Virus record (IMG/VR): IMGVR_UViG_3300044557_000292
Location: 1 to 64,000 of that record
Direction: 5' to 3' (one strand)
Source: a virus
Lineage: Duplodnaviria > Heunggongvirae > Uroviricota > Caudoviricetes
DNA length: 64,000 nt
In this document: piece by piece, positions 15,599 through 63,614 of the stretch
Position numbering within the stretch: position 1 is the first letter of the stretch
Layout of the letters: every line of letters starts with the position of its first letter
Made by a program: the position numbers and the translations under genes
The notes under the pieces: generated by a model
The model's input: the letters and a program-made list of their open reading frames with translations, nothing else
What the model was told of the DNA's origin: nothing
Database searches by the model: none

Positions 15599-15660
15599 AA
15601 GGGCTAGATTTCAACGCTGGCCGTGTAACACGGGGAAGCATATCCTAGGATTATAGGGTC
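15599..15660 (+). repeat. Dispersed repeat family B, copy 2
   Basis: AAGGGCTAGATTTCAACGCTGGCCGTGTAACACGGGGAAGCATATCCTAGGATTATAGGGTC. Confidence 0.95.
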
Positions 15661-16088
15661 TTCCAGCATAGACCCTATAAGTCCTCACCCCTAAGCTTGA
15701 AGCACCCTGACCTCACCCCCTTCACTTCCACTCATTCATGGTGTGATCAGCAGGCCACTGTCCGGCGTGGGCTAGCCTTCCACTGATGATCTTGGTGGTC
15801 TCGTCCGCAGCGCGAACCTCAGACGCCATTGCTGCACCCCGAGTCCTCACCATTGAAGCGTGGACTAATCGCGCTGGCCGGCTACTCTGCCCATGGAGTA
15901 GAGATCCTCGTGGAGTTCCCTCCGGAAGATGATGCTGGTGATTCCATTGATCCATGATTCCTCATGAGACATCCTCCCGTCAACCCGTATCATGATTGCA
16001 AGATTCATCTCGACAAAGGTCCCAAATGGGACACGTCGCGTGACCCCGAGTTTACAGGAGTTAATGCAGGATTGACTGGGATTGCGGA

Positions 16089-16177
16089 GGATGCGTTCTA
16101 ACACACCATACCCACGCGTGAGTAAAAAAACACGCGCCGCGACGGGTCGAGCGTCTAGGGGGTCATGGAATGCGCCT
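16089..16177 (+). repeat. Dispersed repeat family A, copy 2
   Basis: GGATGCGTTCTAAC...GTGAGTAAAAAAACACGCGCC...GTCGAGCGTCTAG...TGGAATGCGCCT. Confidence 0.9.
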
Positions 16178-16303
16178 GGGGCGTGCTTGGGGCCACCCCA
16201 CGGGATCGCCGCGTGATGAGCATTAACTCGCGTCACCACCCACTCCCGAATGGTAATCGCCCCGTGCCAGCTTGGCGATTATCCTATACTAAGGTTATTA
16301 TCA

Positions 16304-16567
16304 TCAAGATTCAAGCTCATAGTGATCGGGGTAGAATGACTCGCCCTGCAGCTCGCGGACGCACTTGTTAAGCGCGTTAACGAGCGACTTACCGCCGCGT
16401 GGGTTGAGCGAGATGCTGTGATTCCAACTGTTACCGCATTCGAGGGTGTAATGGAAGTACTCGGTAAGCTCCTGTACGGTGCCCGTTTGCTTTGAGACGC
16501 GGCCGCGGTGCATCTTGATGATCGTGTACGTTCTCGCGGAGGACTTTGACTTTGCCGTTACACTCAT
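16304..16567 (-). CDS. Small hypothetical phage-type protein
   Basis: 87 aa with RBS and its own promoter (16607-16636). Confidence 0.75.
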   Translation of the reverse strand: MSVTAKSKSSARTYTIIKMHRGRVSKQTGTVQELTEYFHYTLECGNSWNHSISLNPRGGKSLVNALNKCVRELQGESFYPDHYELES

Positions 16568-16606
16568 GATGAATCCTATTCCTTGTCACGTTTTGTTGAC
16601 TTGATT

Positions 16607-16636
16607 ATTATAACCCGGATAAGATCGCGACACGCC
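16607..16636 (-). promoter_or_regulatory. GGCGTGTC-N14-GTTATAAT promoter
   Basis: Recurrent motif upstream of small genes. Confidence 0.7.
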
Positions 16637-16644
16637 AATGATGG

Positions 16645-16950
16645 TCATGAAGAAGCAGTGAACCCTAATCCCCCCCCCGATCCATTCTCCTTGAGCTGAC
16701 TATAATAGTCGATCAGTGGTAGACTCTCATCTCTAGGATCATCAATGCTAACCAGCCATCCATCTCTTACAGTCGCCAGCCCATCATGATCACCACTGTA
16801 ATCACCAGTCTCAGGATCATTACCTCCGAAGATCTCAAATTGGAAGCTAACGTTGTCATCCCTGACAGCATCACCGATCTTGTAGTTACGCAAGACCCGG
16901 CCGAACGCCTTCGCCGCCCTCGCGACCCTGCTCATCATGCAACTCGTCAA
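16645..16950 (-). CDS. Hypothetical protein (start uncertain)
   Basis: Acidic ORF, probably 5'-truncated or frameshifted. Confidence 0.45.
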   Translation of the reverse strand: MTSCMMSRVARAAKAFGRVLRNYKIGDAVRDDNVSFQFEIFGGNDPETGDYSGDHDGLATVRDGWLVSIDDPRDESLPLIDYYSQLKENGSGGGLGFTASS

Positions 16951-17082
16951 ACGTGCCCATTACTAAACGCTCCTTATCAGGTATGGAATTTTGCTCATGA
17001 TTGATCATATCACGAGATCTTCCATGGGTGGTTAGAACGTGGTGAGGACGCGTCAAGCAATCTTGAAGGTGAGTCTTCCGAG

Positions 17083-17144
17083 AAGGGCTAGATTTCAACG
17101 CTGGCCGTGTAACACGGGGAAGCATATCCTAGGATTATAGGGTC
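17083..17144 (+). repeat. Dispersed repeat family B, copy 3
   Basis: Identical to copy 2 over 62 bp; its 3' extension TACGGTGGAAGTTCC is shared with copy 5. Confidence 0.95.
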
Positions 17145-17418
17145 TACGGTGGAAGTTCCATGCCACGTCGTGCCCAGGGGGTCACCACATCCCGCCCCCT
17201 CATCTCCTACTAGCACAGTCAATCAGTCCAATCCTGCGGGCAACCTGACCCAGCATAGGCCACCTCCCATGGGAATCCGTCCATCACCCCCGTCATGTGA
17301 TCATGGTCTCAACTCCTGGAGGACAGCGTGCTCACTACCGTAGACCCTGGGTTCATAGGACGTCCTGCTGACGCTTGACCTGTAGTCTAGGGATCGTGGG
17401 CGACCCCCACATGACGAC

Positions 17419-17722
17419 ATGCTTGATCCTGAGACGGATCTGGCGGATGGACTGGAGCGCTTCTTCCCCGTCGTACTGGACAAGACCGTCTATCAGAATG
17501 CGGATGCGATTGCTAGACAACTCGACGCCATAGGCGTCGGAGAGGTCAATCTGTTCGGCATTGACACCGACATTTGTGTTCTGCAGAACGCCGCCCGCTT
17601 GTTCGATCTCGGGTACCGCGTGAACGTGCTCTATGACTTGTGCGCCACCAATGCTGGCTTCGCGATCCATTCAGCAATGCTCACAGTGCTTCAGCGCACC
17701 GTCGGCCGCAAGCAGGTGAAGA
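17419..17722 (+). pseudogene. C-terminal fragment of an isochorismatase/cysteine-hydrolase family gene
   Basis: VLDKTVY...EVNLFGIDTDICVLQNAARLFDLGYRVNVLYDLCAT; lacks the N-terminal LLVID catalytic Asp; runs into a CRISPR repeat. Confidence 0.8.
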
Positions 17723-17749
17723 GGTTCAACCCCGCTACGCGGGGAATGC
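17723..17749 (-). CRISPR. Solitary degenerate CRISPR repeat
   Basis: GGTTCAACCCCGCTACGCGGGGAATGC has 3 differences from the array repeat, with the stem intact. Confidence 0.9.
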
Positions 17750-17932
17750 CCTAGGAACGTTGAGACCACGTTAACGAGGGTTGAGTACAACCACGATCCC
17801 CGTTAACGCAGGCCAGCATCACGAACCATCGAAAGAACCCCTATGGGACCCATCACGCTATTAAAATATCAAGCGTCAGTACCATCGCATGATTAAGAAT
17901 CATCTAGAATGATAATGCGCTAGGAACGCGGA
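17750..17932 (-). promoter_or_regulatory. Paralogous copy of the CRISPR leader
   Basis: Shares CTAGGAACGTTGA, CCACGTTAACGA, GACCCATCACGCTATTAAAATATCAAGCG and ATAATGC.CTAGGAACGCGGA with 1147-1312. Confidence 0.85.
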
Positions 17933-18021
17933 GGATGCGTTCTAACGCACCGTAACACAGGTGAGTAAAAAAAACACATGCTATGATAGATCGAGCGTCT
18001 AAGGCATCATAGAACACGTCC
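17933..18021 (+). repeat. Dispersed repeat family A, copy 3
   Basis: Same consensus as copy 1. Confidence 0.9.
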
Positions 18022-18463
18022 TAATCCCATGTGGAGCCATATCCTCACGGAACGAATGCGAGATTACCGATTCCTACCAAAACCATATCATTTGATGGAG
18101 ATGAATCCTATAAATGTGAAGGAACTGTGAATAATCTTATTGTTTTAATGAGTTCCTCACCTTTTGAAGATGACTGGTACCTTAGATTCCATCATGTCAA
18201 CCGGCGTGATGGGACATCTTGTCCTACAGATGATCTGAACGTTATCTGATGGGGAGTGGAGCTGTGCTCCCACCCATTGATATGGAGATTCACAGCATCA
18301 GTTAAGATAAAGACTCCCACGAGTTAGGGTGACGGATCGCAATGGAAGCATGACGCCCTGTTAATAGTGGCCACGTGGGCCTACCAGTCCCCAACATTAG
18401 GGGTTAAGCAGTGTGGAATCATCTTCATCGCCTCCCGTCGCTAGTACGATAAGGAATAGATAA

Positions 18464-21145
18464 TTGAAACAAGAATCAAGTATGGGAGACTCCTCAGATT
18501 CCTCAATGAGCGGTACCCGGGAGGATCTTAACGGGAATACTGTCGATTCCACCTCTACACCAACGGTGAGTCCGGAGATGATCAAGCATTCTAATGACTG
18601 GATACGGAATCATCCCAGTGTCCGCAACAAGCACCTGACCCTGAGGAAGATGGATAAGATGCCGTCTTTGAAGATGAGCCCATCAATGGGACACCGTGCT
18701 AGGTGCATTGGTGATAGCATCGCGCTCATGTTGTCCCCGGGAGATTCCGCTAGCCGGTACGCGATCATGAAGAGTCTGGGTCGCGATAACCTCACTGGTG
18801 AACAGCTGATCCTGCATAACGGTAAGAAGTGGATGAGACCGGAGGGAGCTGGTCGGCCGAAGTTCGATCATATCTTCGCCGCGTGGAAGGGGTGGCTTCC
18901 AGTACCCGGGGGGCTGCAACTCCTATCTGAAAGCGTGAATGGTCTTAAGTCTGACATGGATCCATTCCAGTTCAACAGAGACATGTACATGCTTAACGAG
19001 AGGGCTAGCAGTGGCTTCATCTCTCTAAGCGGCTACAGGTCAGTGGGCGGGCTATCATACCAGACCCTCAGTATAGCCAACCAGACGCTTATTGATGATT
19101 ACATCAAGTACGCGATCGAGCATTACTACGAGCCGTACGACTCCTACGGTCTTGGAATCCTCTTCGAGAACGCAACCGGGTATGAGTACGATCTGGAGAC
19201 GCCTGGGAGACGCGTTGGGTCTCAGAGGGATCTCATTGACGTGATGCAGAGGATAGAGGATGCGTTGGTGGCTCCATCCTCGCCTCTTTCACGGTCAACG
19301 TCAGCCGACCAGCAGGGGAATGACCCGTCTGTGTACGCTGGATCGCCTATGATGGATGACCTCACCGTGTACTCGTACTCACGGAGGAAGAATCTCCTAC
19401 CAGCGTCCTCACTGTACAAGATCATCAACGCGGCCATGAGTAGGGTCAATTGCGCGGGTGCAGCTGGTCTTGAATCACTGCCGGATGATATGCTTCTTAA
19501 GATCTTCGTTAGCGTCATCAAGGATGGAGCTGATAGCGATAATGAGAACAATGAGTGGAAGAGCTATCAGCAGTACGGATCATCATTCAAGACTCTTATA
19601 GACGGGAGCCGGGTGAGCACTTCGCCAATCATTCCGTCCAAAGACTGTCTTGAAATGCTACTATACCTGGTTGATGTGGGGATCATAACAAGCATTGGAG
19701 AATGGAATGAGGTCGTTGGGTTCATCGCGAGGTTCCCCGTTAAGAAGGCCGGTCAGAAGACGGAATCTAATGGAGCTAGCAGCGTGAGGAAGGGAGACCT
19801 CATCGAATTCACATTAAAACTGGTCTCGTCCTCCGGGTCTGTTGATAATGCTCTTGATGACTTCAAGAATATGGGCTCGGTGACCAGGGGTCTTATACAG
19901 TCCTTCATCAGTAGTCATGACGTGGTCAGTAACTATGATCTTCATGCGAACCCGGCGTCGAGCAGCCAGTCTATTCAGAGCTCATCATTCATCAACGCTC
20001 TTAGGGACACGTGGAGGAATGCTGCCGGGCATGGGCTTTTGGGAGGCATCACCTCAAGTGATGAGAACCCGTATGATTATAATAGGATTAGGATCGGGTA
20101 CGTTGCGGGCACGATTGGAGATGAGGATCTACGCTCGATATTCGAAGAGTACTCGCTTGCCGTAGCGGCAACATCAAATCATGTTGCCGGTTTCAATACT
20201 GTCATCAGGAAGCTGGGAGACTGGCCGTTCAGGAATGTGGGAGATCTTATCCGTAGGGTTGAGGCGGTGATGGACGATAATCCCAAGGGACTTAGCACTG
20301 AGAATAAGAGAGGGGTGTCGATGCTCGTGTCGATCGTGTGCAAGCATTATGATTGGCCTGAGTTCCACGTGGAGAGCTTCGCTAGGAGGAAGATGAGGGA
20401 GACCATCGAGTCCTGGAAGAGGGATAACCCGGAGTACGCGCTCCTTGTTGACCCGTATGAGTCCTATTATGATGAGCACTGCGCGGGTAAGAAGAGGAAT
20501 CGCATCAGGTCAACGCCTAAGATTCTTGAGTACATTGACGAGGCGAAAGCGTCGCCTCTCAAAATGGGTTCAAGGCCGGTGGACACTGAGATGAGGATCG
20601 TGAAGCGCATGGCTGATAACGCTACCGGCGATACGACCGGCGCGGTAAGTACGGACAGATCTCGTAGGATCGATAGTGGCATCCTGTTCTTCAAGGGGGA
20701 GATCATAGGTAATAGGGATATTGCGAATCTTATCGTTGAGAACGGATGGGCTTACAGGGACGTCCTCGTGGATACGCAGGCTGTCATTGACGAGCTCCCG
20801 CCTACCGGAGATTCCTATGGGCTGTCTAAATTGTCAACCGTCTTGAAGCCAGACGGTGAGTATGACATAAGACTCCTTGAGGAGGGTATGCTTAAGGACC
20901 CGGGATCTACTATCGATAATGCGTTATGGGACATGTATTATAAGTCAGATGCCGCGGGTCAGTCTAGATATTCGTTGACCGGGCAGATGAGGACTCTTGT
21001 CTGCCTGCTCGGAGTACTAGCTAACGAGCATCACGGGACGACAGTTCGTCTTAACGCGCTATGGGAGCTTCTCGCCGGGGGAGTCCTTAACATGAGGGAG
21101 TTCAATGAGGTCATGGAGGAATCAACTGCTGAACTTGAAGCATAA
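18464..21145 (+). CDS. Large hypothetical protein; C-terminal domain paralogous to the next gene
   Basis: 893-aa ORF with AAGGAA RBS. Confidence 0.85.
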   Translation: MKQESSMGDSSDSSMSGTREDLNGNTVDSTSTPTVSPEMIKHSNDWIRNHPSVRNKHLTLRKMDKMPSLKMSPSMGHRARCIGDSIALMLSPGDSASRYAIMKSLGRDNLTGEQLILHNGKKWMRPEGAGRPKFDHIFAAWKGWLPVPGGLQLLSESVNGLKSDMDPFQFNRDMYMLNERASSGFISLSGYRSVGGLSYQTLSIANQTLIDDYIKYAIEHYYEPYDSYGLGILFENATGYEYDLETPGRRVGSQRDLIDVMQRIEDALVAPSSPLSRSTSADQQGNDPSVYAGSPMMDDLTVYSYSRRKNLLPASSLYKIINAAMSRVNCAGAAGLESLPDDMLLKIFVSVIKDGADSDNENNEWKSYQQYGSSFKTLIDGSRVSTSPIIPSKDCLEMLLYLVDVGIITSIGEWNEVVGFIARFPVKKAGQKTESNGASSVRKGDLIEFTLKLVSSSGSVDNALDDFKNMGSVTRGLIQSFISSHDVVSNYDLHANPASSSQSIQSSSFINALRDTWRNAAGHGLLGGITSSDENPYDYNRIRIGYVAGTIGDEDLRSIFEEYSLAVAATSNHVAGFNTVIRKLGDWPFRNVGDLIRRVEAVMDDNPKGLSTENKRGVSMLVSIVCKHYDWPEFHVESFARRKMRETIESWKRDNPEYALLVDPYESYYDEHCAGKKRNRIRSTPKILEYIDEAKASPLKMGSRPVDTEMRIVKRMADNATGDTTGAVSTDRSRRIDSGILFFKGEIIGNRDIANLIVENGWAYRDVLVDTQAVIDELPPTGDSYGLSKLSTVLKPDGEYDIRLLEEGMLKDPGSTIDNALWDMYYKSDAAGQSRYSLTGQMRTLVCLLGVLANEHHGTTVRLNALWELLAGGVLNMREFNEVMEESTAELEA

Positions 21146-21216
21146 GACTATGCCCTGCCAATGGCAGGGAATTCTATTAACGGTATGAGGACATAAGCAA
21201 CTGGAAGGAAGGAATA

Positions 21217-22137
21217 ATGCTAACAAGCATGAAGATAGCAGATCATAACGCTAGACTCTCTCACGGGAGAACGGTCTGGAGTGGAGTTGACAGAACGATC
21301 CCAGTAAGAACGCACGTGGATGGCAAGACGGAGCTTGTGAGACCGACGCATAGCAGTAAAGACTTGGCTAAGATCTGCCCCGGGTACGCAGGCCAACTGG
21401 GTGAGTATGATGACTGGAGATCTAGGGTCATCGCCAAGAACCCTGACCACATGCCGCTATCAGCCCGCCGCCTTGCCGGAATCATCAACGAGATTCCTCC
21501 AGTTGACCCATCCACGCCAGATGCGAACATGAAGCTCGCCCGTGAGATCTACGCGCAGGTCGAATCAGAGCTTGATGATCATGATCGTCGGTCGAATCGC
21601 AAGCTCAGGGATCGTGAGCGTGGACGCAAGCTTAAGATTGCCAGGGATAGCGCCATCATGCTGCTCACCGGCGTCAGTATTGACGACAGTGACGTCGCCC
21701 AGCTCGTCATGGAGAACGGGTGGGAGTACCTGGGGTACCTCACGCGGGTGAAGGGTGAGAGGGACGCCAAGGCTCTTGTGGACGGCGGTGACGCTTGGGC
21801 TAACCCGTCAGTGATCCTTGGACCTGGTACGGGCTACGTCCTCAGTGACATCACCAGGGGAATGCGTGATGATCCCAGTAGAACGGTTACGGTCGAACTG
21901 GGGCGGATGGCCAGTGAGGTGAAGGGCAACAAGAACGCCCTCACGAGGAATATCCGCACGCTCGTGCTCATCCTTCACGTGGCCGCATCTGACGCGGGCG
22001 CTAGGATTCCACTGCTTGAGTCCATGATGGACGGTCTTGAGGGAATGACGAATAGCACGTTCGTCTCGCGGTATGAGAGGGGTACTAGCACTGGGCTGTT
22101 CACGGCCACCGGTGAGCCAATCACCATGTTCTCATGA
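21217..22137 (+). CDS. Hypothetical protein, paralog of the 18464 C-terminal domain
   Basis: Shared L.VENGW.Y, GM..DP..T and LT...RTLV.LL motifs. Confidence 0.85.
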   Translation: MLTSMKIADHNARLSHGRTVWSGVDRTIPVRTHVDGKTELVRPTHSSKDLAKICPGYAGQLGEYDDWRSRVIAKNPDHMPLSARRLAGIINEIPPVDPSTPDANMKLAREIYAQVESELDDHDRRSNRKLRDRERGRKLKIARDSAIMLLTGVSIDDSDVAQLVMENGWEYLGYLTRVKGERDAKALVDGGDAWANPSVILGPGTGYVLSDITRGMRDDPSRTVTVELGRMASEVKGNKNALTRNIRTLVLILHVAASDAGARIPLLESMMDGLEGMTNSTFVSRYERGTSTGLFTATGEPITMFS

Positions 22138-22158
22138 TGAGACTATAATTGAATGAGA

Positions 22159-22260
22159 ATGCCTAGGATGCGTTCTAACGCGCTGTGGCCCAGGTGAGTA
22201 AGAAAACACGCGCCGAGACCCACGGCGCGTCTATGGCGCGTTAGAATACGTCTTAGGCGT
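22159..22260 (+). repeat. Dispersed repeat family A, copy 4 (best-folding)
   Basis: 28-position outer stem plus inner ACGCGCCG/CGGCGCGT hairpin; lies between convergent genes. Confidence 0.9.
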
Positions 22261-22670
22261 ATCTGGTGATCATTCCTCACCACGTCTACTCATCATATGT
22301 GAATCATACGCTGATATGTTAGTTAACATTCAATTTCTTCAGTTCACTGTACTAGAGTTCTTATCTTTAACCTCATGCTCGTTGATCCTCCTCCGGACTT
22401 GCCCTTCGAAGAATTCTGAATCTTCCTTAGAGGATGCGCATCTTAGAGGATGCGTTAGACCATCATGCATAGTGAGATCATATTCATCATTCTGCATAGT
22501 CTCATAATAGTACGCGGCTGCCTCTGATAACCTTGAAAGGTATCGATGATCATCACGATCATTAACGTATTGGACTTATAGGAATTGGATAGATCTTCAA
22601 CCTTCTCGTTAATAGTCTCAGTCATAATTAGCCCTTCCAATTCCATTAATGATGAGTTTTAACTTAATAT

Positions 22671-23528
22671 TCAGATGAATGCTCCTATGATCTTCCCGAA
22701 CGGTTCGGCATCCACGCTAGCTCCGCCCACAAGTACCCCACTCACGCTCGGGATGTCCGCGATCTTGTCCGCATTGTCTTCATTCACGGATCCACCGTAC
22801 AGTACTGGAATCCTCCCAGCCCCATGGAATTGGGTGACGTGATGGCGGATCCTGCTCACCATGCGGTCAATCTCATCCACGGTGGGCACGTTACCAGTAC
22901 CAATCGCCCATACGGGCTCGTACGCGATCACAATCCTGGCTGTCTCGTATGGGTCAAGGTCAGAGAGGACAGACAATTGGCCAGTAACTGACGCCCACGA
23001 CTCATCATCGTACGAAGATGGACTCCTCAACTCCGTGGATGCGGTGAGACTATTCTGGTCAGTAGCGTCATGATCCTCAGCGTTATCACCAACGCACAGG
23101 ATTGGCGTCATGCCGGCATCAAGAATCGTGCGTAGCTTACGACGGATGCACGCATCGTCCTCATGGTGGTAACGTTTGCGCTCACTGTGGCCAACGAGCA
23201 CGTACTTGCAGCCAAGGGCTGCGAGCATGGACGCGGACACGTCACCCGTGTACGCCCCGCCCTGCACGTCGGATACGGTCTGCGCTCCGATCGTGATTGG
23301 GATGTGATGCTTACCAGCATACTGACAGACCGGGTGGATGGCCGTGAATGATGGAAGCACGATAACCTCAGCATTGTCGGCATCATCAGCATCCTTGAGC
23401 ACATGAGAGAGCTTGTGGATGAGCTCACGCCCCTCGTTATGGTCAATCTTCATCTTCCAGTTACCGATGACCAGACGTTTGTTTGAATCACGATTCCTGT
23501 TCATATGCGATTCCATCCTCTTGTTCAT
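22671..23528 (-). CDS. tpiA: Triosephosphate isomerase
   Basis: GNWKM, GAYTGDVS, VGHSER, IAYEPVWAIGTG, LYGGSV, GVLVGGAS. Confidence 0.97.
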   Translation of the reverse strand: MNKRMESHMNRNRDSNKRLVIGNWKMKIDHNEGRELIHKLSHVLKDADDADNAEVIVLPSFTAIHPVCQYAGKHHIPITIGAQTVSDVQGGAYTGDVSASMLAALGCKYVLVGHSERKRYHHEDDACIRRKLRTILDAGMTPILCVGDNAEDHDATDQNSLTASTELRSPSSYDDESWASVTGQLSVLSDLDPYETARIVIAYEPVWAIGTGNVPTVDEIDRMVSRIRHHVTQFHGAGRIPVLYGGSVNEDNADKIADIPSVSGVLVGGASVDAEPFGKIIGAFI

Positions 23529-23641
23529 CCTATTCTTGCATTCGGCTCATCCATAGTCCTGCGTGAGGAGTAGCCCCGATGGGGAAGTGGCATCATCGGT
23601 TGAAGCATCATCGTTATCAGTGGGGGCATTCCTCACAACCG

Positions 23642-24652
23642 TCAACTCGGATGGACATCAGATGTCCTCCGCTCAAGATCAAAGAATCTGATCATGGCCT
23701 CAACCTTATCAGCCATGGCCTTCGTGGGAGATTTGAGGAGCGAGCGCGGGTCATACAGCTTCCCGGCAATCACCCCGTCCTCACCGATACCGGTAAGACG
23801 ATTAGCCTGCTTGATGATCTCATGATAGAATACAAGCTGAAGCTCAGTGTTCACATTGATCTTCGTGACGCCGTTCACGATGGCCTTTATAATCTGGTCA
23901 TCGGGAATGCCAGACCCTCCGTGGAGTACGAGTGGCATGTCCAACCCATTCATGCCTAGGGCGTCTCTCAACTTGGACAGGTATTCGAAGTGAAGCCCAC
24001 CCCAATCCTTTGGATACGGCCCGTGAATGTTACCAATGCCAACAGCCATCATGTCTGGGCGCAGTGTGGCCATTCTGAGGACGTCCTCTATGGGCGAGGT
24101 CTCACCAGACCCGTACACGCCATCCTCACTGCCTCCAATCGTCCCCACCTCAACCTCAACACTCACACCGCGACTATGGGCTTCGAAGATAATCTCCCGA
24201 GACCGCGCCACGTTCTCCTCGATTGGAAGAGCGGATCCGTCGAACATGACAGAGGTGAACCCGGCATCAATGGCCTCAAGGCAGCTATCATAGTCAGCAT
24301 GATCCGCGTGCAGCACTGGGAACCAACCCTGCGGGACCTCACCGTTCTGCTTCTCGTACTCGATGAGGTCAACGATCATGTCATGGGCGAGCTTGTACCC
24401 TCCCATGTACTTGGCTGCCCCCATCGTTACCTGGAGGATCACGTCATGCGGACGACCCCTCTTCACTGATGCCGCCCCATCAATGATCGCGTGAGCCCAC
24501 TCCAGGTTGTTCACGTTGAACGCGCCGATCCCAATGGTTGCATTGTACGCCCTCCAGACCACTCCGCGCGATGGCTGGATAACCATGTGCTCGGTATCAT
24601 GGAGAGTAGTACTACTCTGCTTCTTGTCCTTCTCTATTATTGATGTCATCAC
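23642..24652 (-). CDS. fba: Class II fructose-1,6-bisphosphate aldolase
   Basis: IGAFNVNNLEW, LHADH, GFTSVMFDGS, SVEVEVGTIGG.ED, GIGNIHG, LVLHGGSG, KINVNTE, YDPR. Confidence 0.95.
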   Translation of the reverse strand: MMTSIIEKDKKQSSTTLHDTEHMVIQPSRGVVWRAYNATIGIGAFNVNNLEWAHAIIDGAASVKRGRPHDVILQVTMGAAKYMGGYKLAHDMIVDLIEYEKQNGEVPQGWFPVLHADHADYDSCLEAIDAGFTSVMFDGSALPIEENVARSREIIFEAHSRGVSVEVEVGTIGGSEDGVYGSGETSPIEDVLRMATLRPDMMAVGIGNIHGPYPKDWGGLHFEYLSKLRDALGMNGLDMPLVLHGGSGIPDDQIIKAIVNGVTKINVNTELQLVFYHEIIKQANRLTGIGEDGVIAGKLYDPRSLLKSPTKAMADKVEAMIRFFDLERRTSDVHPS

Positions 24653-24858
24653 AGCTTCTCCTCAAGATCATCAAGCGGGTTAGACAGGGCAACCTCGCTT
24701 CCAATTCCAACGGGGTCATCACGATCCTCCTCGAAGAGGTTGAAAGCCCTTCTACGATTCAACTCATCAACATAATCCTTGGCATCATCCTGCGTTCCCG
24801 TGAACACACCACTGTTCCCGTAGCCATCAATGTAAACGTATCGTTTCTCAGCACCCAT
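24649..24858 (-). CDS. Small hypothetical protein
   Basis: 69 aa, coupled to the fba start; -10-like GTTATAAT upstream. Confidence 0.5.
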   Translation of the reverse strand: MGAEKRYVYIDGYGNSGVFTGTQDDAKDYVDELNRRRAFNLFEEDRDDPVGIGSEVALSNPLDDLEEKL

Positions 24859-25254
24859 ATCACAGATCTTATCTACTAAGTTTTTCTAACAATTCCATTA
24901 TAACACAAAATCAATCGCGATGAATCTGAATTCTTCATTTAGACGCAATGAAGCCTATGGTATTATTTCTCGTTAATTGAATCGGTGAACAAATAAGGAT
25001 TAGAGATAGAATGGTTCCGTTATTGCTCGGTATCTTCGTATCGACTGGAGGCGTCTTGCTCGGCAGCTTGACGTGATGATGGTCGGAGGAGTGGATGAGA
25101 AGTGCTCTAGTCCTATCTTCCTGAACGTGTCATCATCAATAAGTTTTGCTGGGATAACGGGGACCATTACCTCCAACAGGTAACCGTCACGATCAGTTAG
25201 CTGCCGGCGGGGTTATCAGCACGCCAGCGACTGCCTTCACGTTGGTAAGAACTG

Positions 25255-25815
25255 TCACGATTCAAACCTTCCAGTCTTCCCCAGTAGGTATCTTGTCACG
25301 GCCGGCCAGTCGGGGTACGGTTCAAATCCGAATCGTATGAGCTCACCCCTGAATTCAGATGCACCGTGGAAAGGCCAATCATCGATCAGATAGTCACCAC
25401 GGAGTAACTCCTTGTGATGAGTGAAGATCACGTGCTTGTAGAACGGGTTCTCGGGTCCGGATCCTCCGAACCAGCTCTTCACCCACCATAGCTTCTCACG
25501 AGCACCATCATCGTTATCCCACGGGTTCGTTGAGGCAATATAAAGCTCGTAGTCATCCTTGAGGGCGTCCACGGCATGGACAGCACCGGGCACTGGGTCA
25601 AGGTGAGCGAAGATGCCCGGCCAACAATCTGGACGCTTGTCCCCAGTGACGAGACCAGATGCCATCAACTCGTCAGCATACTTGTTGAAGTCGGCCAGCG
25701 TACCGTCCATGTCAAAAAAGACGATAGGCTTCACGTGGTTCGTGTCCACGTGATGGCTGCTCCCATTATCACGGGCAATGCTGGTATCATTGCTAATCTG
25801 CTTGTTATCAGTCAT
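25255..25815 (-). CDS. 5'(3')-deoxyribonucleotidase (HAD, NT5C family)
   Basis: FDMDGTLADF, P.PGA..AV..L, IAST.PW, EKL.WV, H.KELLRGDYLIDD. Confidence 0.92.
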   Translation of the reverse strand: MTDNKQISNDTSIARDNGSSHHVDTNHVKPIVFFDMDGTLADFNKYADELMASGLVTGDKRPDCWPGIFAHLDPVPGAVHAVDALKDDYELYIASTNPWDNDDGAREKLWWVKSWFGGSGPENPFYKHVIFTHHKELLRGDYLIDDWPFHGASEFRGELIRFGFEPYPDWPAVTRYLLGKTGRFES

Positions 25816-26072
25816 CAGAATCCTCTCTCCTCAGCGTCACGTCTGACAGCCGCAGACTCTTCATCAAGCTTATTCCTAACCCACTCGTCATAAACCTCAT
25901 CACGGGAATTCCACTCGGCGTCGAGCCCATCTTCACGTTGCTCTTTCAGACGCTCCCCCTCAAGCTCGGCTATCCATTCCGCGTACATGTAAACCTCTTC
26001 CCTCGCTTGCTGCTCGCGATAAGCATCAAACTCAGCCTGTTCGTCTTTCGTCACGTCTACACTCCGATTCAT
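25815..26072 (-). CDS. Small acidic hypothetical protein
   Basis: 85 aa; stop overlaps the next start. Confidence 0.6.
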   Translation of the reverse strand: MNRSVDVTKDEQAEFDAYREQQAREEVYMYAEWIAELEGERLKEQREDGLDAEWNSRDEVYDEWVRNKLDEESAAVRRDAEERGF

Positions 26073-26259
26073 AGACTTAATCTGTTAACGATTCCATCAT
26101 ATCATAGACTAGCGACGATATGATGGAATCGCTTCGTTTTATTGGGGTGAATGGAGGTAAGATTGATCGTAATGCTTATCTTGAAAGATTCTCAGCACTA
26201 TTGGAGATGAGTACCTCTATGGTGAGAACAATGGGAAAGATTAAGATAAGTGGATGGGA

Positions 26260-26349
26260 GGATGCGTTCTAACGCGCCGTGGCCCAGGTGAGTAAGGGAA
26301 AACACGCACCGAGGGCCACGGCGCGTCTAAGGCGCGTTAGAACACGTCT
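26260..26349 (+). repeat. Dispersed repeat family A, copy 5
   Basis: GGATGCGTTCTAACGCGCC...GGCGCGTTAGAACACGTCT. Confidence 0.9.
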
Positions 26350-26377
26350 GAACGCATATGGGGAGCTAATCCTCGTC

Positions 26378-26581
26378 CTAATCCTCAAAGCTGGTGGCGA
26401 ACCCGCTTGATACTGACACGAGGAGGCTCGTGAGTTCTGACTCGTGCTCGGACCCCTCCAATGACTCGAAGTCGTCAATCGCATCCACGCCAAGCGTCTC
26501 GTCGATCATGTACCCCGGTACACCCCACTCGTTCATGAGTACTTGCACCGCGTCAGATACCGTTACTGCCATCCCAATCAT
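26378..26581 (-). CDS. Small acidic hypothetical protein
   Basis: Has its own GGCGTGTC-N15-GTTATGAT promoter (26624-26654) and GGGAG RBS. Confidence 0.6.
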   Translation of the reverse strand: MIGMAVTVSDAVQVLMNEWGVPGYMIDETLGVDAIDDFESLEGSEHESELTSLLVSVSSGFATSFED

Positions 26582-26836
26582 CTCCCGCTATCAGCGGCAA
26601 TCCACCTGTTAACCAATGATTCCATCATAACATGGAGATCATATAAGACACGCCAATCTCAACACCTTATCCTTGAATCAGCTGAACCGCTCTAGCACAT
26701 CAATCCGTTAACAGAATCCGTCCAAGAGTGATCATGCGGTCAATCTTGTCCTCATCCAGGGGAGTACTGATTCTTCTCCAGTACTCCCCCATTCCGTCTA
26801 GGACCAACCTTGATCTACCCTAGACGACCATCAGGC

Positions 26837-27421
26837 TCAATGTCTAATCGGCTTGAATCCAAAGATTCCAGCCGCTATGCTCTCGGGGAATGCCTCCACC
26901 TTGTTATCATACGATTCCACAGCCCGGTTGTACTTGATCTTCTCGTAACTGATTCGATTCTCTGATCCCTGCACGTCAATCATGAAGTTCTTCACGGTCG
27001 TGTTCGTCTTCAACTCGGGGTAAGACTCCCGGATGACCTTCACGAGGTCATCAGACGCTTTAGTGATCGAGTCAGACGCATCTGGCTTCTCATACTTGCC
27101 AGCATCCTCGTACAATGATCGAGCTTCCTCAAGAGTGGTGAGCGTTGCCTGCTCCTGCTTCATTGACGCCTTCACCGTGTCTATCATTGGGGGAATGAGA
27201 TCCGCCCTCCTCTGGAGAACGTTATCAACCTGCGAGTACCTCGTCTCGACATCATTCCTAGCGTTCACGAGATCATTATAAGAATACGATAGCCATCCCC
27301 CAATGATGATGAGAACAATAATAATACCAGCAATGATCTTTCCTATGGTTCGCTTCCGGTTCACCATGACGATCCTCCGCCGCCTCCGCCGAATGAGTCG
27401 TCTCCGCCAGATCCTGACCAT
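26837..27421 (-). CDS. lemA: LemA family protein (likely start MVNRKR near 27367)
   Basis: TM, YNDLV, SQVDNVLQRRADLIP, ESYPELK, ENRI, YN.AV..Y, FP.SI.AGIFGF. Confidence 0.93.
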   Translation of the reverse strand: MVRIWRRRLIRRRRRRIVMVNRKRTIGKIIAGIIIVLIIIGGWLSYSYNDLVNARNDVETRYSQVDNVLQRRADLIPPMIDTVKASMKQEQATLTTLEEARSLYEDAGKYEKPDASDSITKASDDLVKVIRESYPELKTNTTVKNFMIDVQGSENRISYEKIKYNRAVESYDNKVEAFPESIAAGIFGFKPIRH

Positions 27422-28356: not shown

Positions 28357-28492
28357 AGATTCATTCTCCTAAAATCTATCCATTGCCAGACTTAGCAGGA
28401 TTAAAATATCACCTCATCTAGTTAACGTTAGAATAGGCTCATAGAACTGGCCTTGGAAAGATCAGAATGGTCTAGCTGATTGATTGATCGTA

Positions 28493-29068: not shown

Positions 29069-29159
29069 AGTCCACCATCATTCCTCCTGCCTGACAGTAC
29101 GGGCAGTCCTTATGCTCATCTTTCCTATAAGTAAGATATTGATATCGTCAGTGATCTCA

Positions 29160-30848: not shown

Positions 30849-30901
30849 GATCCTCCTCCCTCATCGTTTGAACAGATAGCCCGGTGGGCTTATTGAACCC
30901 A

Positions 30902-33020: not shown

Positions 33021-33055
33021 TTCATCTGTTATAATATTACTCGATAAAAGAATTC

Positions 33056-52133: not shown

Positions 52134-52203
52134 TAGGCCCAATCGAAGGATCCTTGATAGGCCCAATCGAAGGATCCTTGATAGGCCCAATCGAAGGATC
52201 CTT
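52129..52203 (+). repeat. Tandem repeat, 3 x 24 bp
   Basis: CTTGATAGGCCCAATCGAAGGATC in three perfect copies. Confidence 0.95.
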
Positions 52204-52272: not shown

Positions 52273-52334
52273 AAGGGCGTAATAGCAACGCTGGCCGTGT
52301 AACACGGGGAAGCATATCCTAGGATTATAGGGTC
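52273..52334 (+). repeat. Dispersed repeat family B, copy 5
   Basis: Full consensus. Confidence 0.95.
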
Positions 52335-52539
52335 TACGGTGGAAGTTCCGTGCCACGCCGGGCCCAAGGGGTCCCCCGCGTCTACCCCTTGCCCCGATAA
52401 ACCCAAAGACATGTAGACTTGAGGACCTAACCTTGCACTGTCGACTTCTAGTAAGATCTTCGCCCATCGGCGTGTCCCCATGGTAAAGAGTTATACTGAT
52501 CTTGTAATCAAGAAAACCACCACCAGGAATGAGGAAGTC

Positions 52540-52873
52540 ATGGCACTCTACACATTGGACTACAGTGACGTGAAGGAAATCAGTGCCAACTGCAAGGCGT
52601 GCGGTGGAACGATGATTGGCACCAGGCATTATGATCACGTGGCCAAACCGGGCGTCCACGTCTTCACGAGCTACTAGGACTGACATCGCGCGGCTCGACG
52701 AGAACACGAGCGTCCTCACGCGGCTCTGCAGGTATGAGGGGGCTTACTCGAGGACAACCATGAATGGTCTCAATGAATGGTTCGATAGACTCCATGTAGC
52801 CAAGCATCTTTCCATCAACGACGTCCGCAGGGCGAGTTCGAACGGGTTCTCGGACGAGATCATATTCCACTGA
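52540..52873 (+). CDS. Hypothetical protein split by a +1 frameshift at TAG 52675-52677
   Basis: Promoter 52469-52497 and GAGGA RBS; ...HVFTSY continues as RTDIARLD... in the +1 frame; paralogous fragment at 62861-63086. Confidence 0.55.
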
Positions 52874-53037
52874 TGCCTGTGAATAATCATTGAGGACGCT
52901 TTTACTCAAGATGATCTGTTGGCAAGGCCGCCGCTGGAGTGGGTGCTTCAGGGATTGATCAATGCCACGCCGGCCGAGGTCATCCATTACAGCATCTAAC
53001 ACGAATCCAATCGCAACGACAGGAAGGAACCGTCATC

Positions 53038-53346
53038 ATGAAACTTCGAGATATTCAGGAAGCATACAAAAGGGCGAAACAGGCACGGATCGAACTTCTC
53101 CCCATCGTGGAGAGGTATCTTGAAGAGAGTGGCACGATCTCGTTCGAGTCGATCAAGGGGGCGGGAGGATGGCAGAAGCTTCATATCCTCCCGAACGAAC
53201 ATGACATTCAATGGAGTCTTGTTCTGGAAGACGAGCGTGCCGCCGACACAGTTCTGAAACGCGGAACCATCGCCTACGAAGACCTTGAAACCGAGGAGGT
53301 CGTGGAGACCCATATCCGGTTCAAGAAGCTTCGACGGCCTTCCTGA
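53038..53346 (+). CDS. Hypothetical protein
   Basis: MKLRDIQ start with AGGAAGGA RBS. Confidence 0.65.
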   Translation: MKLRDIQEAYKRAKQARIELLPIVERYLEESGTISFESIKGAGGWQKLHILPNEHDIQWSLVLEDERAADTVLKRGTIAYEDLETEEVVETHIRFKKLRRPS

Positions 53347-53560
53347 AAGTCTCCTGAGAATCCACTTGCGTCCGCACGCTCTTTGCCCCTACACTGAAAG
53401 CATCAACCACCTATTACCTGAACATTGACAAGTCTGATCTGGTGGTGCGATGGAGCAGCCGGTCCCTCGAACCCTTGATTGATGGGCTGGGCCACACTGT
53501 CTATCAAGGATCGTCCGCATCTGTGGGTTCATGTCCCGTCAACAAGCCCGTGAGTCACAT

Positions 53561-53647
53561 GATGCGTTCTAACGCCCTGTGGGCCAGGTGAGTAAAAAAA
53601 CACGCGCCATGCAAGGTCGAGCGTCTAAGGTGCCATAGAACACGTCC
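53561..53647 (+). repeat. Dispersed repeat family A, copy 7
   Basis: Consensus match. Confidence 0.9.
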
Positions 53648-59681: not shown

Positions 59682-59735
59682 AGACGCATTCTAACGTACC
59701 TTAAGCGCACGACGCCCAGGCGCGTGTTTTTTCAC
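59682..59735 (-). repeat. Dispersed repeat family A, partial inverted copy 8
   Basis: Reverse complement GTGAAAAAACACGCGCC...TAAGGTACGTTAGAATGCGTCT (3' half only). Confidence 0.7.
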
Positions 59736-59982
59736 ATGCTAATACCTCAAGACTCTCTAGCCGCGCATAGATTAAGTCTGAGGGCATATGGAGTCGCTTT
59801 CACGCCCTGAACGTGGCAATAGAGCATTTGTCCAGGAAGCCGCCGACAAACGGCAGTAGGGGACCGGGTGGCATCCCCTACACGTGATCACGACATGCCA
59901 ACAGTCTATCACCCCCAATAATGTTATCATGGAATCGTAAGTCGTAAGCAGGACAGCCTGAGCTGTAGGAAAGGTAATCATC

Positions 59983-60264: not shown

Positions 60265-60877
60265 GACCAGTGCTCACCAACACGATACGGCAGGACGATA
60301 ATCAGACGCTATAATCGACCCATCACGGGTCACTTGGCTGTAGCTCTTGTAGGACTGGACGCGGGTACCACGTGGGACCCGCTATTGGGTCTTACTTCTA
60401 GTACGCGTGGTGTCCTTGCTGGCAGTATGAATGCAGTCGTCCACATTCCTGAGTGGTGGGGGCGGCATGGTCTTTAACAACACGATCGGGGTACGTGCCA
60501 CTGATCTCCATGATGTCCTTATAGGGAACGGGAGATGCATCCTCGAAGCCCGATCATGTCGATCTATGAGGGCCGTATGGACCCACCCGACCCCGGGTGG
60601 CCCACCCATGCTGCCGGCGTGGGCGTTTTCCGCCGGATCGGCAGATTGTTCGCTCACCGCGCCTGCTGAGCGCTCCCATGCGTACGTCTGCGTGCCCGCC
60701 GCGGGCGCTAGCGACCGTGATCGGGTGCTCATGATGATGGTTCGCACGATTCCGGCGATTCCGATGAAGCAGGATGATGCCGGTGACGATGTAAGAGTTA
60801 CGGCGGGCTGCGGCGCGCTGACGTTCGATAGCGGCACGGCCGTGGTGGTATCGAACGTATTCATGATGAAGTGCTCC

Positions 60878-61498
60878 TTAGTGAGTAGAGGCCGCTGGAC
60901 AGTCGCCGGCGAGTTCCTTGATGCTGCCGTCTTCATTATACGATTTCACATAGCAGCCGGTGAGTGAGCGCGTGCTCTGGCGTGGCTTGCTCGCGTTCCT
61001 GCGTACGTCCGCCGACTTCGACGGAGTGGTAGCGGCGCTGGCTGTCTGCGGTTTCACCGGGGTGAGTCTATCACCCGTGCCCGCGAACAAGCCGGCCTTA
61101 TTATCCTTGACGATCAGCATGCCGTTGATCATGGCTCCGTCATGAAGGTAACTTAATCGGCGGGATTCTATGCCGCCATCGACGCTGTTATAATCGTCCA
61201 TCGATGTCACGGTGATGCCGTACTCGTCGTTGATCTTCGGTATGTCAATGCTCTTCGGCCAACTGGATTGGAACACCCAGTAACACGCGACGAAGAACGT
61301 GATGATCCCGGCAGTCACTGCTACTGCCGTGATGGCTTTGCCATGCCCGTGGAGAATCGAGTCCACGGACTTCGCGACCATCGCAGTTCCCAGTGCTATA
61401 AGCAACGCGATGAGTATCCCCGCCACGATACCAATAAAGCCGACGCTCCGTATGTTATCCGCTGGGATCATGTACTTGTTAATGTCATGCATTCTCAT
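60878..61498 (-). CDS. Hypothetical membrane protein
   Basis: 206 aa, 2 TM segments, AAGGAA RBS. Confidence 0.7.
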   Translation of the reverse strand: MRMHDINKYMIPADNIRSVGFIGIVAGILIALLIALGTAMVAKSVDSILHGHGKAITAVAVTAGIITFFVACYWVFQSSWPKSIDIPKINDEYGITVTSMDDYNSVDGGIESRRLSYLHDGAMINGMLIVKDNKAGLFAGTGDRLTPVKPQTASAATTPSKSADVRRNASKPRQSTRSLTGCYVKSYNEDGSIKELAGDCPAASTH

Positions 61499-61835
61499 TC
61501 TTCCTTATCGTTGACGATTCACGAGTGTGACCGAGTGAATCGCCGCGCTCACTCGAACCGTCTGAGTACCGTCAGCATGTTAGGCGTGATTCTTCTAGTC
61601 ATGATTCCTCCAATTCCACTGTTACCATATGATTCACAGCCCAAGCCCGGCTTGCACGCTCACTGCTGCCCCGGCCTCCTTGCCGCGTGGTTGATGGGTG
61701 CTGCCGTCCTCCGGGGCGCTCAGCATAGGCCTACTCGGGCTTGTGCGCGGTGAGCCAGTCCGCGTCTTGCTCAAGGATGTCGAGCGCGCGGTAGAGGAAG
61801 TAGGCCTTGTCACGAGTGCGGAGGGTGGAGCCATC

Positions 61836-62062
61836 CTACTCCGCGTCACTGATGAAGTACATGACGCTCCTGGTGGGGTTACCGCACTCGCCTGGCCGCG
61901 TGATACCGTAAACGCGGGCTGCTGGGAACATGACGCTGTCCCCGTCATCACTCACGCTGACCGTGCGGCCATTATAAGCGGGGGTCGTGGACGCGGCCTC
62001 GATGATCTTACCAAGCGGATGGCTGACCCTCACGCCCTCAAGCTTGCTGATCCTCATGCTCA
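61836..62062 (-). CDS. Small hypothetical protein
   Basis: MSMRISKLEG... downstream of the promoter at 62121-62150. Confidence 0.55.
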
Positions 62063-62860
62063 TGATGCACCCCCAGTGACTACCTTGACCCCAGTGAATC
62101 CTCACTGGCTTGACGATTCTATTATAACGCTGGCACGGGTTAGACACGCCGCGTCACCCCCGTCGGTGCGGGGCCCCTCCAGGAAGCGACTTGTGTACAA
62201 TTGTGTACAAGCCGCCCCGGTGGCTGGTATGACAGCGCGCAATACCAGGCAGCGTGACTGTAACGCCGCGATGACAGCAAGGTTGATCGCGCTGGCGAGC
62301 GTGAGCAATCCCATCCCGTGGTGATGGGAGCCTACCCCCCCCCCGCCCGCGCCGGTGACGGGTACCACTACCGCCACGCGTACTTCACGGGGCAGGAAGA
62401 TCACCCATTGACCCCAGGAGTCATTAGGATTCCATGATGAGGGAGGATTCCACACGCCTACCCATCATGGACGCTCGTAAGACCTCGTCTAGGCAAGAGG
62501 ATCCTCACAACACGAGGACTCAATCCCCATACCACCATCCTCCCCCCCCCCAAGCAGGACGTATGATTCCACTGATGACCATCTTACAATGATCATAACA
62601 ATATAAGCGCGCAATCAACCTCACGAGGATGCTACGCGCACGGGGTCATGCACATGACCATACCACGTCCGCAAGAAGTTACACACCCTCAGGATCATGC
62701 ATCATACGCAGCGCACAATGCGTAAGAAGTTATTCACGAGCTTATAGTCAGCATCGTCTACATGAAGTACTACGCGCCTGACCAGGAGGAAAGGAGAAGC
62801 AAAAAGAAAAAAGCCACCACCGCATGCCGTCCACGTCCGTTGCATGGTCAGGGATGCTGG

Positions 62861-63086
62861 CGTGGCCAAACCGGCCGTCCACGTCTTCACGAGCTACTAG
62901 GACTGACATCGCACGATTCGATGGCAATACGAGCGTCCTCACGCGGCTCTGCAGGTATGAGGGGGCTTACTCGAGGACGGTAATGAGGGGTCTTAATGAT
63001 TGGTTTGATATGATCCACGTTTCCAAGCATTTATCCATCAACGATGTCCGCAGGGCGAGTTCGAAATGGTTCTCGGACGAGATCAC
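62861..63086 (+). pseudogene. Diverged 5'-truncated copy of the 52540 gene
   Basis: Aligns with 52638-52863, including the same TACTAGGAC site. Confidence 0.8.
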
Positions 63087-63212
63087 ATCTTACCGAGGAC
63101 GATGCCGGAAAACCAAAGAACACATCTACTTGAAACGATCTTCTAACAGAACTGTAGCATGAATAGACGGGGTGAACACCGTATAAGTGGGACGTCTGAC
63201 CGTTCTTCGTGA

Positions 63213-63273
63213 AAGGGCTAGATCTCAACGCTGGCCGTGTAACACGGGAAAGCTATATCCTAGGAATAGGGTC
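63213..63273 (+). repeat. Dispersed repeat family B, copy 6
   Basis: AAGGGCTAGATCTCAACGCTGGCCGTGTAACACGGGAAAGCTATATCCTAGGAATAGGGTC. Confidence 0.92.
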
Positions 63274-63525
63274 CGCGTCCCGATCGCGCTCACCCGCGTT
63301 CCAGTGACTCGGGTGGGCTAATCGACTGATGGTCTGCTCGGACGTGATCAGGCCGTGGACGGTCAGAGTCAAATGGTGGTCTGCGACGCCACGCTTGAAT
63401 TAATCAACTAGTATTCTGCGCTGGCACAATCAAACCAATTGCTGGTCTGGTGATCTGCGCGGGCGATTGGTGGTCTTCGCTGATTCAGATGAACGGTAAG
63501 GACACCGTGATGTGAGGAACGCGGA

Positions 63526-63614
63526 GGATGCGTTCTAAAGACCCGAAGCCCAGGCGAGTAAAAAAAACACACACCACGACGGGTTGAGCGTCTATGGCGT
63601 CATAGAACACGTCC
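63526..63614 (+). repeat. Dispersed repeat family A, copy 9
   Basis: GGATGCGTTCTA...CAGGCGAGTAAAAAAAACACACACC...GAGCGTCTATGGCGTCATAGAACACGTCC. Confidence 0.88.

Follow-up and report, generated by a model that had tools for sequence, protein, structure and literature searches.

The 64,000-nucleotide stretch described here (the window; positions 1–64,000 of IMG/VR virus record IMGVR_UViG_3300044557_000292) contains dispersed copies of two short non-coding repeats, B and A, in which a B is often followed at short range by an A on the same strand. The window comprises bases 1–64000 of a single 419,707-bp contig (G000), a complete circle whose ends overlap by 89 bp inside a clustered regularly interspaced short palindromic repeat (CRISPR) array. 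Iterated nhmmer searches of the whole circle locate 12 copies of B (65 bp) and 22 copies of A (∼93 bp, one of them partial). The five B–A pairs listed in a first-pass annotation of the window are all found at the positions and on the shared strand given there, as are its lone copies: A at 1308, 22161 and 26258, a partial A at 59682 (minus strand) and B at 2405 (minus strand). Mapping on the full replicon, which that annotation had proposed, adds two further B–B–A units outside the window, B377804–B377080–A376762 on the minus strand and B380409–B380746–A381306 on the plus strand. These outer units, at 376.8–377.9 kb and 380.4–381.4 kb, diverge around an RNA ligase/kinase gene. The window contains the following features, where ORF denotes an open reading frame:

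1–1146, minus strand: main type I-E-like CRISPR array, leader-side part; continues from G000 419309 over the circle junction
278–312: spacer matching the small contig L020 (1283–1314) at 32 of 32 positions
1147–1307, minus strand: CRISPR leader, duplicated together with A at 17751–17927 (75% over 178 nt)
1308–1400, plus strand: A1, unpaired; faces the stop of the ORF at 1466–1975 (minus strand)
1466–2276, minus strand: two ORFs (112 aa and 169 aa) downstream of B1 in the sense of B
2405–2469, minus strand: B1, with no same-strand A partner
15599–15663, plus strand: B2
15664–16083: B2–A2 interior, 420 bp, with no credible gene
16084–16177, plus strand: A2; its outer flank, 16178–16647, duplicates the flank of the unpaired A at G000 397948 (87% over 486 nt)
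17083–17147, plus strand: B3; in run X15 a contig joins its left flank to the B4 interior
17419–17754, plus strand: 3′ fragment of an isochorismatase/nicotinamidase gene (PF00857, E 5.6e-10)
17723–17927, minus strand: orphan CRISPR repeat and mosaic leader, whose repeat-proximal part is most like the leader of array 3 and whose A-proximal part is most like that of array 1
17928–18021, plus strand: A3
22161–22253, plus strand: A4, unpaired, in a convergent gap 24 bp past a stop
26258–26349, plus strand: A5, unpaired
34833–34891, plus strand: B4, of a subtype shared with two Bs upstream of the Replicase gene (G000 205111 and 205403)
35056–35148, plus strand: A6, 19 bp from the stop of an aspartase/fumarase gene (35167–36621, minus strand)
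52273–52337, plus strand: B5
52540–53346, plus strand: B5–A7 interior with a broken small gene and a 102-aa ORF, both in the sense of B
53559–53647, plus strand: A7
59682–59739, minus strand: partial A (right part only), unpaired (E 7.8e-9)
63213–63276, plus strand: B6
63521–63614, plus strand: the A partner of B6 (A8 in unit B6–A8), 114 bp from the stop of a minus-strand ORF

The order B-to-A is non-random, and the pairing is real. With tandem Bs collapsed, a same-strand A lies no more than 1.3 kb downstream in seven of nine B clusters. The comparison with intergenic positions that had been recommended for the window gives a clear result: when A is placed at random intergenic positions genome-wide, the mean is 1.35 clusters and none of 20,000 draws reaches seven, and the same holds when placement is restricted to ±10 kb (mean 2.04; 0 of 20,000). 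Restriction to ±3 kb raises the mean to 3.94, and seven is reached in 147 of 20,000 draws. The 1300-bp cut-off is the observed maximum; at 600 bp, five of the nine clusters are paired, a value that the nulls reach in 9 and 29 of 20,000 draws. Orientation considered by itself gives weaker evidence, with p 0.03 in a coin-flip test and 0.09 in a permutation test. The As that have a B partner group as a subfamily (mean identity 0.81, p 0.001). Copies that have no partner comprise 15 of the 22 As and 3 of the 12 Bs, two of these Bs standing in tandem upstream of rep.

The interiors of the units are mutually unrelated beyond ∼40 bp adjoining the repeats, in agreement with the first-pass description of the enclosed DNA as different each time, and the isochorismatase fragment, CRISPR repeat and leader that it placed between B3 and A3 are confirmed. 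A core that it saw as shared between A1, A3 and B is upheld in part: the GTAACAC core is visible, but it is confined to A1 and A3, which belong to one duplicated leader-plus-A block and represent one event. Self-BLAST reveals further duplications. An unpaired A has 470 bp of flank in common with the outer side of A2, the inner leader of A3 recurs beside the unpaired A1, and the inner DNA of B5–A7 has a paralogue outside unit B6, at 62861–63088 (87%). Duplicated blocks therefore end at the repeats and ignore the B-to-A unit, and the repeats mark junctions between blocks duplicated from other sites on the replicon.

Around the 22 A copies there is no consistent target duplication, and the longest word shared by the two flanks of a unit is 4–5 nt in all seven units, versus a mean of 4.5 between unrelated units. 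The flanks upstream of B and downstream of A are not alike (p 0.25), and B does not co-diverge with its partner A (Mantel rho −0.18, p 0.72). Homology within subfamilies extends outward past B and past A, and flank homology fades on both sides with no sharp end; the flank comparison yielded no remnant of an A–B junction. A split composite site, with a remnant of A before B, was rejected (p 0.23–0.25), and two other flank comparisons narrowly exceeded every one of 150 nulls (14.5 versus 14.1). As a separate observation, a GGTCTG-type hexamer, picked post hoc among 4096 hexamers, is enriched in the interiors (9 versus 1.4 expected, in four of nine).

B is composed of two dyads and a set of blocks that vary in combination. 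The repeat is mosaic, with 31 of 105 informative site pairs incompatible and a distance trend at p 0.054. On its reverse strand, an exact TATAAT occurs in 8 of the 12 copies, which are homologous and thus not independent, and a looser sigma-A-like match is found in 10 of 12, with a −35 element that falls in the variable interior and is not conserved. For all four ORFs that lie behind a B in its sense, no promoter-like site is present between B and the start, and a 40-nt stretch with the ribosome site and start is common to two of them; the first ORF behind B1 has this ribosome site and its first codons in common with the helix-turn-helix (HTH) gene behind B377804 at 36 of 40 nt. One of the four, a 153-aa HTH gene (G000 377274–377735), is located between two Bs, and its product is a candidate autoregulated repressor. 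Both main subtypes of B have a predicted small stem around GTG-TAA-CAC; covariation is seen in 1 of 14 B pairs.

The alignment of A includes 21 replicon copies (the partial copy at 59682 was left out) and one from L020, a 3582-bp contig in IMG/VR. A consists of three conserved boxes and a central A-tract, with imperfect complementarity between the left and right arms. The two right boxes are inverted and face one another across an 8-bp spacer. The inverted arms are long and imperfect, approaching symmetry in copies 276312 and 398892, and 78.7% of the cells in the 19-pair long stem are paired; RNAalifold retains only seven pairs, none of them compensatory. The reverse strand presents a hairpin before the T-tract in the 20 copies that have one, with energies from −2 to −19 kcal/mol. 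A is found in 7 of 16 convergent gaps of at least 100 bp compared with 14 of 143 other gaps (Fisher p 0.0014, for heuristic gene calls and unmatched gap lengths), and many As lie within ∼130 bp of a stop codon in either orientation. Conservation of sequence above structure points to a bound DNA site with terminator-like placement. Rfam gives no matches at the gathering score in the window, and none on A or B in the loci L017 and L020 at E 0.5.

We tentatively favor an interpretation, with a probability of roughly 0.45, in which B and A are regulatory or protein-binding repeats that were spread by duplication of an ancestral B–A unit and reshuffled by homologous recombination. B would likely be a promoter/operator block that drives or controls transcription, and A would likely be a terminator-like or insulating protein-binding dyad that stops or shields transcripts. 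The ancestral unit would have been duplicated, and its interior may then have been turned over by RecA-type exchange, insertion and decay, such that the present interiors would be by-products of turnover. Reshuffling would proceed by ordinary homologous recombination between the repeats, with no dedicated cassette enzyme. The paired-A subfamily, the lack of co-divergence between B and A and the incompatible site pairs in B fit exchange among copies.

Several observations weigh against this interpretation. A forward sigma-A-like match is present at only 2 of the 12 Bs; the −10 box on the other strand is directed away from the interior, and each of the four genes tested there has a promoter-like site of its own. 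At least five interiors contain no gene. The A hairpin is weak in many copies, making a plain RNA terminator doubtful, and a simple terminator scan called no hairpin plus T-tract in A2 or A3. Covariation is absent from the long stem of A (316 of 500 shuffles score as high), and A as a covarying RNA is not supported by this test or by RNAalifold. One A is positioned inside CRISPR array 2 (G000 242254–242520, L010), at the old end of the array and beside a truncated repeat. The A of L020 keeps the boxes and their spacing but not the A-tract. Neither this copy nor the one in array 2 is explained if the repeats are regulatory, and both lend the rival readings some weight.

The replicon carries a viral label in IMG/VR, but no capsid or terminase was found in Pfam scans or in a PHROGs search of 83 ORFs without an assigned function, and we reject a phage identity. 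Pfam and NCBIfam scans covered 60 window ORFs, all 264 ORFs of at least 130 aa outside the window and 41 of the 63 shorter outside ORFs, the remaining 22 overlapping tRNAs or arrays. They identify a Replicase-family Rep (G000 202173–204635), conjugation genes of VirD4-, VirB4-, VirB11-, TcpE- and TrbL-like types and Tad-like genes, together with Pol III alpha, gyrase, RecA, RecG, two primases, two sigma-like proteins and two HU/IHF-like proteins. The circle also encodes an MgsA-type ATPase, a transfer-messenger RNA (tmRNA), 50 tRNA calls and a complete type I-E cas operon at 244.5–253.5 kb (cas3/cse1/cse2/cas7/cas5/cas6/cas1/cas2). Its gene content suggests that the replicon is likely an uncultured conjugative megaplasmid of an actinobacterium. 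The host assignment draws on the tmRNA tag, which we take to resemble actinobacterial ones, on the taxa of protein-atlas neighbors and on the link to a p4M-like plasmid described below.

The ORF at G000 69898–73137 (1079 aa) has a weak MobC match (E 1.6e-4) and a C-terminal MOBC/Replic_Relax-like domain, and its Replic_Relax neighbors in the protein atlas score 0.92–0.94. Pfam PF13814 missed this ORF, indicating that profile searches can miss divergent proteins here. Relatives of the MOBC-like protein define a family of uncultured elements with contigs of up to 629 kb, making the replicon a member of a family of large uncultured elements; none of these relatives was matched in PLSDB or IMG/VR. 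Protein scans of IMG/VR for Rep and the MOBC-like protein gave no match, DNA and protein searches of PLSDB returned no record close to the replicon, and a limited literature search yielded no paper attributable to it. Part of the replicon is present in 20 of 24 listed runs, one of which may be its source, and the samples are sludge and dust. Pattern scans for B gave 0 matches in viral, genome and metagenome collections; those for A gave one viral contig (L020) and 0 elsewhere, and exact-pattern scans for A gave 0 in GTDB genomes and 0 in JGI metagenomes, collections that may lack near-identical records. The likely origin region of the replicon, upstream of rep (G000 204636–205686), contains, besides a 150-bp direct repeat that includes B, a set of five short repeats and a perfect inverted repeat of 20 bp.

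L020 links A to a second replicon. Its A copy (E 6e-11) overlaps the stop of rep, and no B is present. The L020 Rep contains Viral_Rep and superfamily 3 (SF3) helicase domains and is 36% identical to RepA of the Bifidobacterium pseudocatenulatum plasmid p4M. One of 78 megaplasmid spacers, that at 278–312 in the window, matches L020 along its entire length, so the two replicons likely share a host. Domain scans found no mobilization gene among the L020 ORFs. We rejected A as the double-strand origin of L020, for which a 12-bp stem-loop at ∼687–712 with a nonamer at its apex (z −4.9) is a better candidate. The stem-loop (669–712) matches RF03070 (Rfam ssNA-helicase) below threshold (38 versus 41.5 bits), and its nonamer presumably resembles the circovirus-type nonamer. 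The motif is consistent with a rolling-circle origin. With the double-strand origin likely elsewhere, A would be an extra site on L020. A-like sites in p4M, L022 and L023 were not significant (E 0.09–0.41). This small 3.6-kb plasmid, bearing A and matched by CRISPR, offers a direct handle on the function of A.

The CRISPR arrays have further irregularities. Array 3 contains a 940-bp insert with an ORF (G000 331225–332161, L014), a lone truncated repeat lies at G000 388694 (L017), and a two-repeat mini-array occurs in a tRNA cluster (G000 314271–314359, L013). In the main array, spacers 810–870 and 996–1056 are mutual reverse complements over 19–20 nt.

A different role, in which B, A or both serve as single-stranded DNA (ssDNA) signals in replication or conjugation (ssi/primase, Frpo-like or oriT-like), appears doubtful, although it accommodates L020 directly: the A of a plasmid that lacks a mobilization gene would be a mimic giving access to the machinery of the megaplasmid, and the spacer a counter-move. 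Placement is also suggestive, with 10 of 12 Bs and 14 of 22 As located within 31% of the circle, an arc with one end close to the MOBC-like gene (G000 69898), two Bs upstream of rep, and window copies mostly on the plus strand (5 of 6 Bs and 8 of 9 As). The GTG-TAA-CAC stem predicted in both B subtypes is compatible with such a signal. Genome-wide, however, the orientation is mixed (B seven plus and five minus, A 16 plus and six minus), 12–22 nick sites would be expected to fragment transfer, and the first 81 kb downstream of the Bs at rep contain no A. The lack of covariation in A and its near absence in B also count against this role, and PMC11541004 reports no enrichment of leading-region anti-defense genes for MOBC elements.

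The first-pass annotation took B and A for the left and right ends of a non-autonomous unit that carries cargo. We consider it unlikely that they are such ends, or att-like sites, acted on in trans by a host enzyme or an unrecognized plasmid enzyme. The fixed B-to-A polarity speaks for such a unit, as does the right part of A, whose inverted boxes and 8-bp spacer have a layout like that of a tyrosine-recombinase core. One A lies in a CRISPR array and another on a second replicon, the megaplasmid encodes HU/IHF-like proteins, and a divergent enzyme could escape Pfam. The annotation had recognized no recombinase in the window, and none is recognized on the complete circle either: six-frame searches gave 0 matches to PF00589, PF00239, PF01797, PF04986 and PF01548 (tyrosine recombinase, resolvase, Y1, Y2 and IS110), and recombinase motif regular expressions found none. 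The controls are good for tyrosine recombinase (PF00589 in 14 of 14 genomes), resolvase, Y1 (PF01797 over cut-off in 6 of 14) and IS110; they are weak for relaxases and for Y2 (PF04986 over cut-off in 0 of 14), so the Y2 negative is weak. Searches by family and motif found no HUH or MOBP/F/L relaxase, again with weak controls. The absence of target duplication, of co-divergence and of an A–B junction remnant, the fading flank homology and the many unpaired copies likewise argue against mobile ends. A further suggestion, that the A at the main CRISPR leader has its B partner beyond the array, fails: the array stops at G000 419309, and the closest B, 380746, already has a partner and lies 38.5 kb off. 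None of the three arrays has a B at its far end.

Population data add joints at the repeats and no empty site. We compared contigs from six of the 24 runs for five of the seven pairs (B5–A7 and B6–A8 were left out); contigs break at repeats and drop rare forms, and cover is patchy in low-depth runs. With this coverage, 0 of 10 listed joints removes a whole B–A unit, and neither the empty sites nor the A–B junctions anticipated by the cargo model were seen. Region 15400–35300 (X11, X12, X13 and X15) has 23–30 of 30 bins covered at low depth and five listed joints. In X15, a contig of depth 3.7 joins the left flank of B3 (307 letters) to the B4 interior (119 letters) through 29 shared B letters, and could be a B-by-B recombinant or an assembly (k-mer) chimera. 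Joints internal to A with short sides (29–56 letters) were set aside as paralogous copies.

Region 373454–385453 (X2, X10, X12 and X13) also has five listed joints, two of them unrelated. X2 shows a 212-bp step back across A376762 (depth 17.7), and X10 an altered stretch directly behind B (depth 1231, shorter side 31). These two joints, with that in X15, count in favor of the cargo model. Against it stands a nearby polymorphism in X2, a deletion of 845 bp (L017 5191–6037) that removes the kinase half of the RNA ligase/kinase gene, with neither A nor B at its ends; X10 depth over this segment is 298 versus ∼2500 around it. One diverged X12 contig spans A376762 and retains the flank on either side, and another reaches B380409 with 110 differences in 1261 letters, indicating that the units keep their places in diverged populations. 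The populations thus show local polymorphism, partly at the repeats, and no precise gain or loss of a cassette. Interpretation of the repeats as a capture system is partly supported at best.

It is improbable that A is an independent palindrome resembling a miniature inverted-repeat transposable element (MITE) or a repetitive extragenic palindrome (REP), spread by insertion, with B a separate operator and one old adjacent insertion later duplicated. The size of A, its long near-symmetric arms, its occurrence on two replicons and its enrichment between convergent genes would suit such an element, as would the copy inside array 2, where the same 9-nt word flanks the insert at either end. That word may equally be a degenerate CRISPR repeat, however, and consistent target duplications, a transposase on the replicon and, in the exact-pattern scans, chromosomal copies are all lacking. 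No better placed is a scheme in which A is a site of the megaplasmid's DNA-processing machinery (the MOBC-like protein or an unrecognized recombinase) with B its polar partner, mini-cassettes running from B to A are cut out or transferred, and the A on a small rolling-circle plasmid is a copy taken to hijack that machinery, with the CRISPR array of the megaplasmid fighting this plasmid; if true, it would constitute a plasmid gene-shuffling route with a parasite.

Other repeats and genes were noted on the replicon. Repeat C is a third non-coding repeat of ∼135 bp, highly conserved and with an internal hairpin, present in 11 copies in both orientations every 21–58 kb around the circle:

7240–7375 and 42836–42970 (window): repeat C
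G000 75601, 107269, 134043, 155242, 183670, 217627, 267661, 323811 and 369144: repeat C

It has no Rfam match in the window and might act as a signal in replication or partition, as an ssDNA signal or as a structured RNA. Repeat D encodes a ∼35-aa N-terminal motif shared by ∼15 otherwise unrelated genes or fragments (window 6320–6417 and 44390–44492, and 13 places in G000), and a 52-nt piece of it (96% to 6336–6387) lies antisense inside the B380746–A381306 interior. The window also contains an Apyc1-like ORF with a metallo-beta-lactamase fold (8673–9449; match under the family cut-off), a MazE-like antitoxin (51819–52133) and a 24-bp triple tandem repeat directly left of B5 (52129–52203).

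B and A recall the sites of pdif modules, integron attC, IS200/IS605, IS91 and REPIN in that short sites surround variable cargo. The enzyme searches described above detect no Y1 enzyme of the IS200/IS605 or REPIN/RAYT kind, no IntI-type tyrosine recombinase and no Y2 match of the IS91/ISCR kind, the last also without a Pfam match in the ORF scans. The right core of attC is a conserved GTT; this form is found in 9 of 22 As and a CAT form in most others; about half of the As lack it. The recombinase of pdif is host-encoded, and its sites have the XerC/XerD 11-6-11 layout of the host dif. The A core, with its 8-bp spacer, has by inspection no likeness to the XerD arm.

Closer parallels come from repeated regulatory motifs. 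In the T4-type phages RB49 and phi1, intergenic PeSL elements, made up of promoter and stem-loop motifs, bracket small ORFans and recombine to give mini-circles; their promoter and stem-loop functions were measured, and no dedicated recombinase is identified (PMC2839356). The B–A units resemble PeSL as repeated intergenic motifs around variable DNA, here putatively regulatory and probably shuffled via the repeats. PeSL is one composite motif with adjacent parts, whereas here two motifs stand 165–1222 bp apart on a plasmid, their function is predicted and no circles were seen. The CUP blocks of IncN plasmids are repeated promoter/operator sequences with a plasmid-encoded repressor, and deletions and inversions are attributed to recombination between these repeats (PMC5371602, PMC3490853). 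The likeness lies in repeated blocks, in our case putatively regulatory, on a plasmid that is probably conjugative and encodes a candidate repressor. CUP blocks, as presented there, head operons in one orientation, whereas B is mixed in orientation, often has no gene behind it and is followed by a second repeat; direct sequence comparison with CUP gave no match.

Two further systems offer analogies. EGeRS1 and EGeRS2 of pLS20-family plasmids, which stand with PeSL and CUP among the closest likenesses, occur as several inverted-repeat-rich copies before variable small operons (PMC8708921). They are multi-copy regulatory sequences of a Gram-positive conjugative plasmid with a partly obscure mechanism, as B and A would probably be. 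EGeRS1 is a conserved block of 400–600 bp, whereas only the 65-bp and 93-bp ends are conserved here and the middle is unrelated. For ssDNA signals, the relevant accounts are those of Frpo and oriT placement (PMC11541004, 10.1101/2024.01.30.577996, PMC12282955). Frpo/ssi elements are likewise repeated, palindromic, intergenic and located on one side of a relaxase-like gene (PMC11541004), but no stem holding a −35 together with a −10 element was found in B or A, and orientation is mixed, if mostly plus in the window. If B and A are regulatory repeats reshuffled by homologous recombination, the repeat-mediated shuffling of regulatory cassettes represented by PeSL and CUP would extend to this family of large uncultured elements, in a design split between two motifs.

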